IMG/VR virus record: IMGVR_UViG_3300045988_138358
DNA length: 64,000 bases
Source of the DNA: a virus
Taxonomy: Duplodnaviria > Heunggongvirae > Uroviricota > Caudoviricetes
Strand: one strand, 5' to 3'
Below, one piece after another: positions 18,057 through 59,502 of this stretch; positions within the stretch are counted from its first letter, which is position 1; each line of letters starts with the position of its first letter. The translations under genes were made by a program, and so were the position numbers. The notes beneath the pieces are model-generated. The model made no database searches. It saw only the letters and a list, made by a program, of their open reading frames with translations, and had not been told where the DNA came from.

Positions 18057-18088
18057 TGTTATGTGATTTAATTTTAGTTTTCTAACAC
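18057..18088. promoter_or_regulatory. operator-like site (degenerate TGTTATG-N17-TCTAACAC) in the divergent region between the capsid gene and 18103
   Basis: Recurrent motif, see findings. Confidence 0.45.
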
Positions 18089-30315: not shown

Positions 30316-30516
30316 ATGAACATTAAACCTATCCGTACAGAACAAGATTATGAGGCCGCACTGCGTGCGGTCGAACCGATGTTCGATAACGAACCGGAAA
30401 TGAATACTCCGGAAGGTGATTTCTTTGAGGTTATGAGTCTTCTCATTGAGGAGTACGAGAAGAAACATTACCCAATTCAGCCACCATCACCTGTTGAATC
30501 TTTTAACTATCCATAA
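30316..30516 (+). pseudogene. truncated antitoxin-like gene: N-terminal domain only, HTH domain missing
   Basis: ORF track 66 aa; the ORF stops where the AT-rich insert begins. Confidence 0.45.
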
Positions 30517-30537
30517 TAAAAGTAATCAGGATAAGCT

Positions 30538-31266
30538 ATGATGTCAGAAAAAGTTACAGATAATCCGTCTATAAATGAAACAGAACTAAAATCATTTTCT
30601 GAAATAATAAAAGATAAAATATTTAACAAGGTTTTTGCATATGTTGTCATTTCTTTTCTAATTTTTAACTGGAAGGATATTTTAATTATATTAAAGTCAA
30701 AGGACGACATCCTATATACATTATCTATTGTTTTTGTTGGTGGTAATGTCCCGTTCTTTGATAATTGGATTGTATCCCCGTGGGTTTATCACGTTGTAAT
30801 CCCATTTGTTTATGGAGTATTTGCATCTGTGTTAGCTCCTATTCTCACACTGAAGATATCTAAGCTAACAAGTAAATTATACACTGAAATAAGATATTTA
30901 GATGAAGCTGCTGATTATGATAAAAGAATAGAATTGCAAAGAAAGAAAACAAAGTTAAATCAAGCAACCAATGACGCTAAATATTCAAAACAAATCTTAG
31001 ATGAAAATGAAAATAAACTTAATGACCTAGCTAAGAAACAGCGAGAAATTTGCGGCGCGATAAAACTATTGCATACTGATGTTGGCAGTATTATTGAGCT
31101 ATATAAAAATAAGGGGGTTAGCATTGAATCTCCGCAAGATTTATGTGATTTTATAGTCGCTATAAAAAGCACATCATTCTATAATGATGACAAGCATTTT
31201 AATAAATTGGTGTCTGATATTTCCAGTTTGTTTGATAATACTGGAATTGATCTTTCAAAAAAATGA
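30538..31266 (+). CDS. AT-rich membrane protein with C-terminal coiled coil
   Basis: ORF track 242 aa; hydrophobic helices then Lys/Glu-rich coiled coil; GC content visibly lower than flanks. Confidence 0.5.
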   Translation: MMSEKVTDNPSINETELKSFSEIIKDKIFNKVFAYVVISFLIFNWKDILIILKSKDDILYTLSIVFVGGNVPFFDNWIVSPWVYHVVIPFVYGVFASVLAPILTLKISKLTSKLYTEIRYLDEAADYDKRIELQRKKTKLNQATNDAKYSKQILDENENKLNDLAKKQREICGAIKLLHTDVGSIIELYKNKGVSIESPQDLCDFIVAIKSTSFYNDDKHFNKLVSDISSLFDNTGIDLSKK

Positions 31267-31299
31267 AAGCCCAGCATAAACTACTAGGCTATGTGTGGT

Positions 31300-33797: not shown

Positions 33798-33824
33798 TGT
33801 CCTTCCTCCACGGATGACGGATAC

Positions 33825-33849
33825 AAAAAAAGGCCGCACATGGCGGCCT
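33825..33849 (-). terminator. leader terminator/attenuator-like hairpin just upstream of the RBS of the 33797 gene
   Basis: Minus strand AGGCCGC-loop-GCGGCCT followed by six or seven U. Confidence 0.5.
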
Positions 33850-34065
33850 GCTTTGGCGTTATGACTCCCTACCGCGCTTCGGCTGAAAGTTAATCGTCAA
33901 AAGAACCTTCAACGGGAGCCGTTAGCGCGATGGATTATGTGCAGTTTGTGATTTCCAAAATAGTGTCAACCACTTTTGGTGGATTTTATTTTTTAACCGA
34001 AATTTGGCCTAAATCATGTTTATGTAGTTAATTGTTTTTATAACATAAAACTTCATTTTGTTTGC

Positions 34066-34689
34066 ATGAAGGATGGTGTAGTGAAGTTAAGGGCTTTAGG
34101 GGCCGCGCTCGCGGCTATGTTGGGATGCGTATCTGCTAATACTGCCAATGCAACTGCGTTACCTGCACAATTCAGGGCAGGGCAGCAGGTTATGAATAAC
34201 GCTGGTGGAGATCATTCACAAGCGGCCATTATGGACTTTTGCAAGAGGGAGGGCATTCCATTACGGCCTGTTGGAACTCAGTTTATTGGTAAAACTGACT
34301 TTTGCGTTTTTGCATATACAGCATATCTGACGGACAAAGCTATAACAAAAACAGGTTATTCAACCAAAGATACTCTTTCCAGATTAAGTCAGGGATGGCA
34401 GCAATTCGAAGTGTATCGCCAGCAAGGATTAGGTGAGTTATTGCAACCTCTTTTTATGCTTGCGTTGGTGCCAGAGGGGCAGCAATTTTTGGTTAAAAAG
34501 GGAATGCTTCGCCAAAGTGATATTGCCGGGTTCGATAGCATGATGGCTTATGAGCGCAAACTAACCGAGCAGCGAAATAAAAAACCATCTGCTTCATGTG
34601 TGCAAAGTAAAACAGCAGAATACAGTGCAGTAGCCGGGCCTTTAGCCAAACAAATGGCAGAGCAATGGTGTAAAAAATACGGGCAATAA
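34066..34689 (+). CDS. predicted secreted protein
   Basis: ORF track 207 aa; N-terminal signal peptide. Confidence 0.4.
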   Translation: MKDGVVKLRALGAALAAMLGCVSANTANATALPAQFRAGQQVMNNAGGDHSQAAIMDFCKREGIPLRPVGTQFIGKTDFCVFAYTAYLTDKAITKTGYSTKDTLSRLSQGWQQFEVYRQQGLGELLQPLFMLALVPEGQQFLVKKGMLRQSDIAGFDSMMAYERKLTEQRNKKPSASCVQSKTAEYSAVAGPLAKQMAEQWCKKYGQ

Positions 34690-34709
34690 GTTACGCAGCG
34701 GAGGCAGAA

Positions 34710-35102
34710 TTGAAAAGATTGGCTATTGCTTTACTGGCGTCTTTCCCTTTGATCGCGAGCGCCGGAAATTTACAAGTTAAGTGCGGTCGGTTTGATATAA
34801 AAATCTATCCAGATGCCATATTTCTGAATGGGAATAAGGTTGATAACGCACACCGAAAAACTGAATCTGACGTAATGAGCTATGTGTTCCAGGAGTATGC
34901 GGAGATGGGGGGAACTTACACGCTGTACTCGCTGGATGTTCCTTCTCGCGGTGATATGACATTATCCCATCAATGGCAGAACGCCGATGGCGAAGCTCTG
35001 CGCGAGGTTAAAACAGAAAAATGTGGCACTTTCCATTCTTTTAAAGGGAAAGCGCCAAATGTTAAATCTGTGCTTGAAAAACAGCGCGCAGGTGAGCTTT
35101 AA
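34710..35102 (+). CDS. predicted secreted protein
   Basis: ORF track 130 aa; signal peptide ending ASA. Confidence 0.4.
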   Translation: MKRLAIALLASFPLIASAGNLQVKCGRFDIKIYPDAIFLNGNKVDNAHRKTESDVMSYVFQEYAEMGGTYTLYSLDVPSRGDMTLSHQWQNADGEALREVKTEKCGTFHSFKGKAPNVKSVLEKQRAGEL

Positions 35103-35489
35103 ACACCTTTAACCACGGAGATGCCGTTCCCTGCACGATAGCGGCGGGGAACGGAATTCTCCATCAGGTCACGAATTACTCCCGCCTCATGTAGTTCCAC
35201 TGTTTCCCAGTATCTGTTTGTCACCAATTACGCCCCTTTCCGCCAGGGGAAGGTATGAACGAGCTTCTGCTTCGGTTGCAGCCATGACGCAGATATACAG
35301 GTGTTTTTGGCAGGAATAGAAACGCCAGATAAATTCAGAATGAGTTGGGGTGGGGATAGTAGCGATATTGGCAGCCTCCTTTGACTAAGTTAAGGAGCTA
35401 CCGCGTGAGGTTCCAATCCCGGCACCCGTTTTTCTAAGGTGCCGTAGAAATATACCCCACGATAAGGCCAGGGCGCAAAAGTCAGTATT

Positions 35490-35657
35490 TTATGCTTTGG
35501 CGGATTTCTTCCGGGCTTGCTTGCAGGCGTAGGCCATTGCTTTAGCTTTCACTTCATCCAGCTTCCCGGTGATCACTTCTTTTCCGAGAGTGACAAACCA
35601 GTCATAGCAACCGCCAGTGATGTTCTGGATTTGAAAGTTGAGGTAGCGAACGGTCAT
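35490..35657 (-). CDS. small basic protein, 55 aa
   Basis: Hand-found; ATG with GGGGG upstream; Lys-rich C-terminus. Confidence 0.25.
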   Translation of the reverse strand: MTVRYLNFQIQNITGGCYDWFVTLGKEVITGKLDEVKAKAMAYACKQARKKSAKA

Positions 35658-35978
35658 TTTGACACCCCCAGCGCGAGTAAAGAATGCAGATTATCGCGTG
35701 AGTGGCGGACAACGAGTGATGGGAAAAGACAGTAGCTGTTCATAGTGTAGTGACTCCTTGCTTTCGGAGCCGCCTTCGACTGTTCCACGGTCTGGTGGCG
35801 GCGCAATAAAGGCTGGAACACCGTGAGTCAACGGGGGCTTTTCAGCCACCTATATTGCACCGCCATAGGTATAGCGGCGGCAATAATACGAAAAACTAAA
35901 CAGTTTGTCTCAAAAAGTTGACCGGTGTGCCAATCGGTAGTGAATGTACATCGGAGAAATTTACAATTCAACTTAAAA

Positions 35979-35989
35979 TGTTAGAAAAC
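35979..35989. promoter_or_regulatory. operator-like half-site TGTTAGAAAAC overlapping the ref stop codon
   Basis: Recurrent motif. Confidence 0.35.
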
Positions 35990-36567
35990 TAATTTATCAA
36001 TTCAATCGCCATCTGATACAACGTCATTTCATCGGCATTGTGCCGCATGAAATCTGCTTTTCCGCCTATTTTTCCATCAGCATGAACAGGGACCAGCCAG
36101 GGATATTGTTCTCGGACCTCGGCTGGCGCTGCGTACTGGTGGTGCCATTTACACAAAGGGAGGACATATTTATGCGCGTTCTCTGCCGTTCTCCCGAAGA
36201 TATGGTGCAGGGATACCACTGGGCTATGTTGCCCGTGAATATGGCAGGCAATGCAGGGGAGAGTACCGATAGCGGTCTGTATCCGGCGTTCATCGGCTGT
36301 GAGTGATCTGCCCTTCAGGCCGCGTGACGTGCGTGTTTTTTTGGGCGGAGCGGATACCGCTTTATCTTTTCTCCGCTGTTCATATTGCTTTGCTTTTTCA
36401 ATTTTCTTTTGCCGATATTCAGGCGATGCGGCTTTTTCTCTCGCTCGCTGCTGCTGGCGTTGAGCTTGTTGAAGGCGCTTTGCCCTTTGTTCCTCTCGCC
36501 AGGCTGGGTCAGCCAATTTTTGCATGGCTTTTTGTCTCTGTTTCTCCCAATAACTCTGTTTCTGCAT
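35989..36567 (-). CDS. ref: Ref-like HNH endonuclease (P1 recombination enhancement function family, tentative)
   Basis: ORF track 192 aa; Lys/Arg/Gln-rich N-terminus plus C-terminal Cys/His nuclease-like core. Confidence 0.5.
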   Translation of the reverse strand: MQKQSYWEKQRQKAMQKLADPAWREEQRAKRLQQAQRQQQRAREKAASPEYRQKKIEKAKQYEQRRKDKAVSAPPKKTRTSRGLKGRSLTADERRIQTAIGTLPCIACHIHGQHSPVVSLHHIFGRTAENAHKYVLPLCKWHHQYAAPAEVREQYPWLVPVHADGKIGGKADFMRHNADEMTLYQMAIELIN

Positions 36568-58307: not shown

Positions 58308-58383
58308 TGGTGGCCCCTACCGGACTTGAACCGGTGACCGTGCGATTATGAGTCGCCAGCTCTAACCACTGAGCTAAAGGGCC
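58308..58383 (-). tRNA. tRNA with CAU anticodon (Ile2 lysidine-type or Met)
   Basis: Hand-folded cloverleaf, 7-bp acceptor stem, T-loop TTCAAGT, CCA encoded; close to E. coli ileX as I recall it. Confidence 0.75.
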
Positions 58384-58392
58384 AGATTACTG

Positions 58393-58521
58393 TTAATTCC
58401 GCTTACGCTTTTTGCCAGAACCGCGTAAGGCTTTTGCCGCTTGCTCGATCCCATATGCAACCACCAGCAGAAATAAAAATGTCCAACCAGGGTTCTTATC
58501 GGCAAAGGCCCAAAAATCCAT
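58393..58521 (-). CDS. small hydrophobic protein, 42 aa
   Basis: Hand-found; one hydrophobic helix and basic tail; ends 10 nt before the CAU tRNA. Confidence 0.25.
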   Translation of the reverse strand: MDFWAFADKNPGWTFLFLLVVAYGIEQAAKALRGSGKKRKRN

Positions 58522-58572
58522 CACTTGCAGCTACCTTTTAAGACAAAACGCCATTGCTGTTAGATTGCGGTG

Positions 58573-58587
58573 CCTGGTGCCTCCAGG
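58573..58587. ncRNA. short hairpin CCTGG-TGCCT-CCAGG
   Basis: Second of three hairpins with identical loop and covarying stems. Confidence 0.3.
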
Positions 58588-58795
58588 TGACGTTAACCAG
58601 TTAACAATTAACGCCGGGATGTTTGATTTAACCACTAAGGAGGATTGTTTTAACTGTTCCGCGTGCGCTTAGCCGCATTCACCGCAATGGTAAGAGCACT
58701 TGGCTGGCTGGGCGGCGATGACGCCTGTACGCATTTGGTGATCCGGTTCTGCTTCCGGCATTCGCTTAATTAGCCAAATACTCTTAACGTTGCGC

Positions 58796-58882
58796 TGGCG
58801 GAGAGTAATGGAATCGAACCATCATCGCTTGCGCAATGGGACGGTTTTCAAGACCGCTTGAGCACCATGCTCCCTACTCTCC
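58796..58882 (-). tRNA. tRNA-Ser-like (UGA anticodon, long variable arm), divergent
   Basis: Hand-folded: 7-bp acceptor stem, anticodon loop CTTGAAA, long variable arm, T-loop TTCGATT, discriminator G, CCA encoded; D-arm unusual. Confidence 0.55.
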
Positions 58883-59028
58883 GGCCGTTGTGGTGGCCGG
58901 TACTGAATCTCCGGCATACGGTGCAGCCAATTAGGACTACGGACGATCACCGCTCGCGAAAGGGAAGATTTGCGGCCGCATTTCCCTAACATCCAAGAAA
59001 GCTATCGCATCAGTCTGCGAATCCACCA

Positions 59029-59118
59029 CAACGTTGAGAACACTGGTTGTCACGCTGCAACGCAACATTTATTCGTAGATTGGGATATGACCCCGTTACG
59101 TCAGTGTTCTCAACGTTG
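59029..59118. ncRNA. long hairpin: perfect 17-bp inverted repeats around a 56-nt interior
   Basis: Arms at 59029-59045 and 59102-59118 are exact reverse complements. Confidence 0.4.
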
Positions 59119-59265
59119 TAGTACCGGTTACGGTTCCGGCCAGGCCTCTTCCTCAACGGGGTATTCTCCATACGGACTACCGTTTATTGGTCGTTCCTGC
59201 GGTTTATGTTGTGAAGCCAGATGCTTATCTTCTGGTTGCTTCAAAGAGCTGCACTTCATCACAAC

Positions 59266-59339
59266 GGTAAGGGTACTTCGTAGGGATTCGAACCCTCTGC
59301 CAAGCACGGCGATCTCCGACGTCGCAAAATACCCTTACC
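59266..59339 (-). ncRNA. tRNA-like element: 10-bp closing stem around a canonical T-arm, no canonical cloverleaf
   Basis: Closing stem GGTAAGGGTA/TACCCTTACC with internal T-arm-like hairpin; I could not fold it as a standard tRNA. Confidence 0.35.
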
Positions 59340-59347
59340 TGTTGTGT

Positions 59348-59423
59348 TGGTGCCGATTAACGGACTCGAACCGCTGACATCCTGCTTACAAGGCAGGCGC
59401 TCTACCAACTGAGCTAAACCGGC
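59348..59423 (-). tRNA. tRNA-Thr (UGU)
   Basis: Hand-folded cloverleaf; anticodon loop CTTGTAA; T-loop TTCGAGT; CCA encoded. Confidence 0.75.
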
Positions 59424-59425
59424 AT

Positions 59426-59502
59426 TGGCGATGGTGGGTGGATTCGAACCACCGACCGACAGCTTAGAAGGCTGCTGCTCTATCCTACTGAGCTACACCA
59501 TC
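59426..59502 (-). tRNA. tRNA-Arg (UCU)
   Basis: Hand-folded cloverleaf; perfect 7-bp acceptor stem; anticodon loop CTTCTAA; 2 nt from tRNA-Thr. Confidence 0.75.

Follow-up and report, generated by a model that had tools for sequence, protein, structure and literature searches.

What does the interval between the mat and ref genes of a P1-type phage-plasmid hold when two genes for exported proteins are followed there by some 0.9 kb without a convincing gene? The question is raised by IMG/VR virus record IMGVR_UViG_3300045988_138358, a 64,000-nucleotide stretch of Caudoviricetes DNA that was analyzed as a whole (hereafter, the window). A preliminary description of this DNA had reported two co-directional genes for signal-peptide proteins (34066-35102) next to a gap with no convincing gene other than a short basic open reading frame (ORF). 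Both observations hold. The two co-directional ORFs exist and their predicted signal peptides recur in homologues, while the gap (35103-35988) spans 886 bp without a long ORF, the only obvious one encoding a 55-aa basic protein at 35490-35657 on the minus strand. Our overall account of the interval, which we consider very probable, is that it combines a half-decayed second immI-type operon with a pair of exported, cooperating proteins in a SimB-type slot.

Based on the gene order of annotated relatives, which runs from P1 gene-25/26-like tail genes through mat and the studied interval to ref, the window can be assigned to a D6-like, P1-type phage-plasmid. The nearest complete plasmid is NZ_CP150992.1 from Escherichia coli, an 87.6-kb non-mobilizable plasmid of rep_cluster_1704 with 99.7% identity across 2.9 kb around the locus, and dozens more plasmids of about 90 kb from E. 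coli, Shigella and Salmonella show 96.6-99% identity over the same 2.9 kb. Among sequenced phages the sole match is D6 (MF356679, locus L002), with 97.9% identity starting only at window position 35247. Other loci used for comparison include plasmids CP095127 (L003) and CP125036 (L004), an 80-kb E. coli contig (L012), an 83.6-kb contig from a more distant phage-plasmid (L006) and L018, which covers part of NZ_CP150992.1. The interval between mat and ref is clearly variable, both in our own locus comparisons and in published work (PMC6799933). In the window it contains two independent, converging modules: module A (34066-35102, plus strand), encoding the exported proteins, and module B (35988-35099, minus strand), adjacent to the ref gene (35989-36567, minus strand; Pfam RecA_dep_nuc, E=7e-35).

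Contents and deletion history of the gap

The minus strand of the gap was aligned base by base with D6, L003 and L004, and every base could be accounted for. Read from the ref side, the gap comprises an operator-like motif, a promoter, a C4-type RNA gene (c4-1), orf86, orf85, the start of an isrK-like element, the 10-bp sequence GATTGGAACC (35418-35409), a remnant of icd, a filler and a remnant of pmgF. This composition identifies the gap, as far as sequence can tell, as the partly deleted remnant of a second, ref-adjacent immI-type operon with an antisense-RNA-controlled anti-repressor. The operon is intact in D6 and most related plasmids, where it includes an isrK-like leader, a C4 RNA, icd, a Rha/KilA-type anti-repressor gene and a pmgF-like gene, and about half of the gap in the window is the scar of two deletions and the loss of a start codon. 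Long ORFs are absent from the gap, as first described, yet it is not empty, since a gene for a structured RNA, another small ORF and the scars of genes lie within it. In homologues the gap is filled by small genes and RNAs, namely isrK-like and C4 RNAs above their Rfam gathering scores, icd, orf85 and the anti-repressor gene (ant). A stretch that seems empty in the annotation of many RefSeq phage-plasmids is therefore a regulatory locus.

The same alignment bears on the proposal that the gap is a decayed or replaced slot for restriction-modification genes or other cargo, which had been suggested on the grounds that P1 carries restriction-modification genes beside ref. P1 does have res and mod near ref, and the mat-ref interval does vary. 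In the P1 annotation, however, ref and mat are adjacent, separated by 78 bp that hold the C1 operator Omat, and res and mod lie on the far side of mat rather than between the two genes. Moreover, all segments of the gap (pmgF, icd, the isrK half, orf85, orf86 and c4-1) align to immI-type sequence, and no restriction-modification genes or remnants occur in the gap or the slot of the relatives examined, including D6, the plasmids and the other comparison loci. We regard such a cargo slot as extremely improbable. The notion of decay is upheld by the two deletions and the start-codon loss, but what decayed was a secondary immI-type operon.

All the remnants lie on the minus strand. The one farthest from ref is the 3' end of a pmgF-like gene (35099-35226), the last 42 codons of which are 41/42 identical to the C-terminus of the 103-aa PmgF-like protein of L003. 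It is convergent with the gene for the 130-aa exported protein and overlaps the stop codon of that gene by 4 bp. Next to it, a 20-nt filler (35227-35246) identified in the alignment marks the junction of a 1.28-kb deletion, followed by the first 40 codons of icd (35247-35366), whose start codon has changed from ATG to ATC (35366-35364) and whose reading frame is joined out of frame to the pmgF remnant. The intact icd product of L003 has 71 aa and matches NF033153. Upstream of the icd remnant, the alignment locates the former icd ribosome-binding site AAGGAGG together with the b2 target of the lost C4 RNA (35375-35385), here mutated from GCAAAAGG to GUCAAAGG, and a hybrid a1/a2 target, GAUUGGAACC (35409-35418), at the junction of a 189-bp deletion. 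That deletion truncates the adjoining isrK-like (a1b1 leader) RNA, which is intact in relatives and of which the 5' half (35419-35442) remains, the surviving element amounting to its first 24-34 nt. The canonical immI stage, which combines a complete C4 RNA gene with icd and an anti-repressor gene, is not found in the window, where it is deleted or truncated; it is complete in D6 and L003, and L004 has the same stage without ant.

At 35409-35418, the alignment shows 189 extra bp in the intact relatives. Rfam searches place in this segment the 3' part of the isrK-like RNA with its terminator (the element scores 59-62.5 bits in D6, L003 and L004, for a gathering score of 50) and the canonical C4 RNA (76-76.7 bits, for a gathering score of 45). 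A copy of GAUUGGAACC flanks the 189 bp on either side, and both copies are complementary to the single-stranded a' sequence (GUUCCAA) of the canonical C4 RNA. The RNA and both repeats co-vary, with a' reading GUCUCAA and the repeats UUGAGAC in D6, and GUUCCAA and UUGGAAC, respectively, in the E. coli plasmids. Because a' and both repeats differ together in D6, we take the repeats to be the target sites a1 and a2 and attribute the 189-bp deletion of the window to recombination between them. In addition, GCAAAAGG is present twice, in the isrK-like leader (b1) and across the icd Shine-Dalgarno sequence (b2), each time as a match to the hairpin-2 loop of the canonical C4 RNA, CCUUUUGC. The 1.28-kb deletion, common to the window and L004, eliminated the 3' end of icd, the gene for a 313-aa Rha/KilA-type anti-repressor and the 5' end of pmgF.

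The distribution of these junctions in PLSDB suggests an order of events. The c4-1/orf85 segment is present in 118 plasmids and the anti-repressor segment in 112, while the junction of the 1.28-kb deletion is found in 10 plasmids and that of the 189-bp deletion in 8, all of them within those 10. In a first step, the 1.28-kb deletion would have removed the 3' end of icd, the anti-repressor gene and the 5' end of pmgF. Recombination through the 10-bp a1/a2 repeats would then have deleted the isrK-like terminator and the canonical C4 RNA, and the icd start codon would finally have become ATC and the b2 site have mutated. The nesting of the junctions fits a scenario in which the anti-repressor was lost first and its now-unneeded antisense repressor afterwards. 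The operon is thus encountered in three natural forms (full, with the anti-repressor deleted, and with both the anti-repressor and the C4 RNA deleted), a series that fits the expectation that an antisense repressor becomes dispensable only once its toxic targets are gone, and in which the target repeats of the canonical C4 RNA itself provide the recombination substrate. Our confidence in this anatomy and deletion history is high.

Loss of the ref-adjacent stage should be tolerable, because the nearest complete plasmid keeps a primary C4-icd-Rha locus outside the window. Situated by the lytic replication gene repL, this primary locus (NZ_CP150992.1, 83555-85098; L018, 15556-17099) encodes a C4 RNA scoring 71.9 bits and has an a1b1/isrK leader as well as icd and a gene for a Rha-type anti-repressor. 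The total for an intact D6-like element thus comes to three C4-type RNAs. This ImmI region is described in a study of D6-like Salmonella plasmids, and the ref-adjacent locus analyzed here represents the second such region.

Several additional observations concern this region in the window and in its relatives. A 39-aa "ash family protein" coding sequence annotated in L003 (4846-4965) and L004 (3586-3705) overlies the canonical C4 RNA gene (L003 4882-4969, 76.7 bits) and is probably a mis-annotated RNA gene; this 179-bp segment occurs in 322 PLSDB plasmids and is absent from the window. The second C4 RNA switches specificity between D6 (L002 5175-5393) and L003 (4882-5100), in a manner reminiscent of P1 versus P7, and c4-1 is the same in both. 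In two E. coli assemblies (L010 and L011, 3672-5361), an IS200/IS605-family element encoding a 408-aa TnpB-like protein and a Y1 transposase sits at the 3' end of orf85, where it replaces the downstream stage and cuts the 130-aa gene to 75 aa, constituting an independent loss of the same region. Locus L009 presents a variant arrangement in which orf85 precedes isrK-C4-icd. In the window, transcription reading through from the truncated operon and passing the exported-protein genes in antisense would encounter as its first terminator a strong terminator-like hairpin (AGGCCGCCATGTGCGGCCT followed by T7; 33831-33849, minus strand) just upstream of mat.

The retained C4-type RNA and orf85

The ref-proximal part of the gap carries c4-1 (35791-35870, minus strand), a C4-type antisense RNA gene that matches Rfam family RF01695 at 40.2 bits, under the gathering score of 45, with E-values of 2.4e-5 in a 4.5-kb search and 3.4e-4 in a search of the whole window. 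No other C4-family match was detected in the window. The minimum free energy fold of c4-1 (-36.2 kcal/mol) reproduces the C4 architecture, with a long outer stem, two hairpins and a single-stranded junction. Comparison of the window with L006 reveals six outer-stem pairs preserved by double changes, and L012 displays one-sided G-U changes. These pairs were counted on a hand alignment, in which the hairpin-2 loop of L006 lacks one C but the stem columns are unaffected; MAFFT/RNAalifold misaligned the divergent L006 stem. The divergent c4-1 RNA carries no annotation in relatives.

In the P1 C4 RNA, the annotated a2 and b2 targets complement nt 51-57, in the single-stranded junction, and the hairpin-2 loop. 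The corresponding elements of c4-1 are UGUUCCA (a', nt 51-57, single-stranded) and UGACUC (b', hairpin-2 loop), and both have complementary sequences downstream on the same strand. An a2-type target, UGGAACA (35781-35787), complements a' and lies 4 nt past the 3' end of the RNA, as in P1. A b2-type target, GAGUCA (35756-35751), complements the hairpin-2 loop some 35 nt past the end of c4-1 and overlies the Shine-Dalgarno sequence AAGGAG (35759-35754) of a 29-codon ORF, the two together spanning 35751-35759. This pairing layout is kept in D6, L003 and L012, and the a' pairing is kept in L006, which has two a2-type sites, the second immediately upstream of the Shine-Dalgarno sequence.

The 29-codon leader ORF (35654-35743, minus strand), a short form corresponding to D6 orf86, ends in a stop codon that overlaps the orf85 start (ATGA). 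Its Shine-Dalgarno sequence and first codons are the same as those of a 61-aa Icd-like gene in L012 and L006 (MNS/MNI). The 29-aa product does not match NF033153 at the cutoff of 25 bits, while its 61-aa positional equivalents score 47 (L012) and 63 bits (L006) against this model, and the 29-codon ORF of D6 and the window is best read as a shortened icd derivative. The downstream gene, orf85, encodes the 55-aa basic protein (isoelectric point 9.6), which contains a GGCYDW motif, belongs to PHROG 7786 and is identical to the D6 orf85 product. The ratio of nonsynonymous to synonymous substitution rates (dN/dS) of orf85 is 0.11-0.32 across homologues of 51-89% identity, indicating purifying selection, and a tblastn search of 50,697 phage genomes returned D6 only.

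In both L012 and L006, orf85 comes after the Icd-like gene, and the locus consists of c4-1, the 61-aa Icd-like gene, orf85 and a terminator, without a second stage. This arrangement reveals c4-1-icd-orf85 as a self-contained immI-type unit, in which orf85 appears to hold the position that ant holds in P1, that is, the position of the regulated effector. By analogy, c4-1 would be cut from the leader transcript of the operon and would pair with a2 and b2, masking the ribosome-binding site of the leader ORF, to which orf85 would be translationally coupled. Given such coupling and masking, c4-1 is expected to repress orf85 both in cis and in trans, in the way that the P1 C4 RNA represses icd and ant.

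Candidate signals for transcription of this unit lie between c4-1 and ref. A putative sigma-70 promoter, TTGAAT-17-TACATT (35943-35971, minus strand), was read from the sequence, and its pattern, TTGAnn-17-TA(c/a)ATT, is kept in L006, L009, L010 and L012. Between this promoter and c4-1, scanning identified a leader hairpin followed by a U-run (GAUUGGCACACCGGUC AACUUUUU; 35911-35935, minus strand) that resembles a terminator or attenuator. The ref stop codon adjoins the core of an operator-like motif with extended consensus AAnTTAnTTTTCTAACA (35979-35988, minus strand; motif scan), embedded in the longer operator-like sequence AATTAGTTTTCTAACA (35972-35990). Allowing at most one mismatch, the motif TTTTCTAACA occurs at 18 sites in the window, about three times the 5.7±2.3 expected from shuffled sequences. 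The exact sites are at 18078, 26150, 35979, 36636, 40732, 52380, 60574, 61980 and 63023, and 9 more have one mismatch. Two copies flank the divergent region between ref and a DUF4406 gene. The motif resembles the C1 operators of P1 in core and in placement, since P1 Omat overlaps the end of ref, and it is put forward here as the putative operator of a D6-type C1 repressor.

The extent of decay raises the question of whether the whole gap might be dead DNA, with the C4-like match and the 55-aa ORF as relics yet to decay. The downstream half of the operon has demonstrably decayed, the leader ORF is a 29-codon relic without a match to the Icd family, and c4-1 scores below the gathering threshold, all of which would be expected in such a case. 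Dead DNA is nevertheless hard to reconcile with purifying selection on orf85 across its 51-89% identical homologues, with a c4-1 stem kept through six compensatory changes, with a'/b'-a2/b2 complementarity kept in diverged loci, and with the presence of the c4-1/orf85 unit in about 118 plasmids and, in L012 and L006, as an independent, complete operon equipped with a terminator. We therefore deem this explanation unlikely. The retained unit, comprising the operator and promoter, c4-1, a2/b2, the leader ORF and orf85, probably works, as judged from its conservation and its likeness to P1, and we propose with moderate confidence that c4-1 represses downstream expression. Confidence in any specific role for orf85 is low; its product may, for instance, be a miniature anti-repressor of the D6-type C1 repressor. 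If the proposal holds true, D6-like phage-plasmids would run up to three C4-type RNAs of distinct pairing specificity, and the stand-alone c4-icd-orf85 form points to a small candidate effector under C4 control.

The exported protein pair and its slot

The first gene of module A, on the plus strand, encodes an exported all-alpha protein of PHROG 12786, starting either at an ATG (34066-34689, 207 aa) or at a GTG (34081-34689, 202 aa). The GTG at 34081 is the likelier start, because it is preceded by an AAGGA Shine-Dalgarno sequence and is used by RefSeq and most database members. The second gene (34710-35102, plus strand), with a TTG start after a GGAGG Shine-Dalgarno sequence, encodes an exported beta-rich protein of 130 aa assigned to PHROG 13864. 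Signal peptides were predicted with a simple scan for n-, h- and c-regions. Both N-termini are K/R-rich and feature a hydrophobic core (mean Kyte-Doolittle 2.3-2.4) and AXA motifs (ANA/TALPA and ASA/GNLQ), and signal-peptide features are found in every full-length homologue, with a conserved xLPA mature N-terminus. The 207-aa protein has a conserved GYSTKDT motif and four mature cysteines, of which C80 is invariant and C59, C178 and C202 are at least 90% conserved; the mature part of the 130-aa protein contains two cysteines. These conserved cysteines would fit periplasmic disulfides. A lipoprotein reading of the 207-aa protein, with MLGC as lipobox, was rejected, the motif being non-canonical and its Cys a Gly in close homologues.

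The exported genes are judged to be real because they are conserved across relatives (37-88% identity), because dN/dS is 0.10 for the 130-aa gene and because fused versions exist; for the 207-aa family, saturation of synonymous sites made dN/dS not computable. The natural fusions of both families, P0024 (277 aa) and P0027 (281 aa), provide direct evidence that the two proteins act together. P0024 is encoded in L006, likewise between mat and ref, and the first family adjoins mat in L009, L010 and L012. Neither exported protein has a match in Pfam, NCBIfam or PADLOC, their only assignments being to PHROG families of unknown function, and tblastn searches of the 50,697 phage genomes and sequence and profile searches of the PDB were empty. 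The exported proteins fall into 10-11 clusters among 5.8 billion proteins, a profile search with the first family on 1.84 billion representatives recovered 21 proteins, and distant family members are found on small Rep3-type plasmids. The pair is a genuine, very narrow two-protein family restricted to plasmids and phage-plasmids. The structural model of the 207-aa protein, with a predicted local distance difference test (pLDDT) score of 83, is all-helical and lacks structural neighbours; that of the 130-aa protein (pLDDT 64) has eight strands and only generic small-beta-barrel matches.

The upstream and promoter region of this operon (33800-34080, plus strand), delimited by BLAST against D6, links the pair to the Sim proteins of P1. 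Window positions 33800-34123, including the first 43 nt of the GTG-start ORF, match L002 1908-2230 with 94.1% identity, and on the D6 side the match runs from the upstream region through the annotated start of orf79, the body of which is SimB-like (52% to P1 SimB). In L009, a SimB-like gene (55% to D6 orf79, 54% to P1 SimB) follows the first-family gene after 10 bp. In PLSDB, the D6-type cassette is found in 56 plasmids and the pair has matches in 74, of which 49 cover 80% or more of its length. Module A accordingly has the sequence hallmarks of an exchangeable accessory cassette, in a slot that appears to accept at least two alternative exported-protein cassettes, and in D6 the 207-family gene was probably deleted from an arrangement resembling that of L009. 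Direct comparison of the 207- and 130-aa proteins with SimA, SimB and SimC yielded only BLASTP E-values above 0.4, and hhalign probabilities did not exceed 0.5% against SimC and reached 2.9% against D6 orf79 in the signal peptide region only. As for the annotation of D6 orf79 itself, its N-terminus (VKLMVLGTALAAKM..., L002 2188-2260) is the leftover start of a 207-family gene, and the real SimB-like signal peptide starts at an internal Met (MFFIKNGKRF...).

In the proposed mechanism, a Sec-exported helical protein and its exported beta-rich partner would act together in the periplasm. We infer with low confidence that they most likely serve the prophage at the cell envelope, for instance in superinfection exclusion, in line with the entry-exclusion role that the preliminary description had considered for such proteins. 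This idea gains support from gene context and none from homology to the Sim proteins. Alternatively, the pair might be unrelated to phage exclusion and constitute a periplasmic moron, such as an inhibitor of or immunity factor against an envelope-targeting toxin or lysozyme, or a factor in host interaction. The location of the pair in the slot and behind the promoter of the SimB-like gene of D6, together with the SimB-like gene directly after the first gene in L009, argues against this alternative, and the fold matches are non-specific and derive from a pLDDT 64 model. Even so, we give it a chance not far short of even. A more ambitious combination, in which the retained unit is an undescribed minimal immI-type switch with a 55-aa effector and the 207/130-aa pair is a novel periplasmic superinfection-exclusion system of two components, exchangeable for Sim-type genes, is rather doubtful as a whole. 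The exported pair offers a compact, tractable candidate for lysogenic conversion or exclusion, carried by a kind of plasmid often found in E. coli and Salmonella of clinical and animal origin.

A number of points weigh against the account of a half-decayed second immI-type operon with a functional remnant and an exported pair in a SimB-type slot. Besides the sub-threshold score of c4-1, the evidence from compensatory changes stems from just three distinct lineages, and the orf85 product has no match in Pfam, NCBIfam, PADLOC or the PDB. The promoter was picked by hand and falls under the 9/12 cut of the scanner, and it shares with the operator, the RNA processing and the translational coupling the status of a prediction from sequence and analogy. 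The order of the deletions is deduced from nesting in 10 and 8 plasmids rather than from a phylogeny. Lastly, a degenerate operator-like copy at 34036-34045 (34030-34045), about 20 nt before the 207-aa gene, could mean that the exported proteins are repressed in the lysogen, which would be ill-fitting for a role in exclusion.

Elsewhere in the window, a low-GC island (30450-31270, GC 0.28-0.32 versus about 0.48 around it) looks like foreign cargo and contains a 242-aa ORF (30538-31266, plus strand), annotated as hypothetical in relatives, whose product is hydrophobic in its N-terminal half and resembles a coiled coil in its C-terminal half. A cluster at 58311-59502 holds three transfer RNAs (tRNAs) scoring 65-73 bits, together with a tRNA-Sec-like match at 58799-58883, which at 46.6 bits narrowly misses the gathering score of 47, and, at 58566-58686, a sub-threshold STnc100-like match of 39.4 bits.

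Comparison with known immunity and exclusion loci

The half-decayed operon is of a known kind, and current understanding of P1-type immunity is not overturned by it; the divergent C4-type module with its orf85 effector is uncharacterized as far as our searches show. The closest precedent is the immI operon of P1 and P7 (c4-icd-ant1/ant2; RF01695, RF03163). As in the window, its promoter lies beside a C1-operator-like site, and its C4 RNA, like c4-1, has about 77-80 nt, an outer stem, two hairpins and a single-stranded a', with near-identical spacing. The same transcript likewise bears the a2 and b2 targets farther downstream, b2 covering the Shine-Dalgarno sequence of a short ORF coupled to the effector, and the a1b1/isrK leader, icd and anti-repressor recur in the intact relatives of the window. 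In contrast to P1 and P7, the RNA of the window falls below the gathering threshold, the leader ORF is a 29-codon relic instead of Icd and the effector has 55 aa and is unrelated to Ant1/2. The locus also lies between ref and mat rather than by sim/repL and constitutes a second copy, its tandem partner being the canonical module lost from the window by deletion.

Pairs of isrK-like and C4-like RNAs have been described as structural homologues of the seqA and CI RNAs of P4 (PMC3632133). Satellite phage P4 (seqA/CI RNA) and Gifsy-1 IsrK thus share with the intact relatives a C4-like RNA preceded by an isrK-like leader and its terminator. The window differs from P4 in that its isrK-like element is truncated and has lost its C4 partner, and in the absence of P4-type alpha and sid genes.

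Among phages, the orf79-orf87 region of D6 is the nearest counterpart, sharing ref, c4-1, orf86 and orf85 at 98.6%, the same mat and, at 94%, the region upstream of the exported-protein operon. It departs from the window in having SimB-like orf79 and orf80 in place of the 207/130-aa pair, and in keeping a full isrK-C4-icd-ant-pmgF stage with GUCUCAA as the a' of its second C4 RNA. The sim operon of P1 (simA-simB-simC), finally, resembles the exported pair in being a small operon for signal-peptide proteins on a P1-type plasmid prophage, next to an immI-type locus. The window proteins lack sequence or profile similarity to SimA, SimB and SimC. D6 has a SimB homologue in the same slot, and in L009 one lies directly after the 207-family gene.

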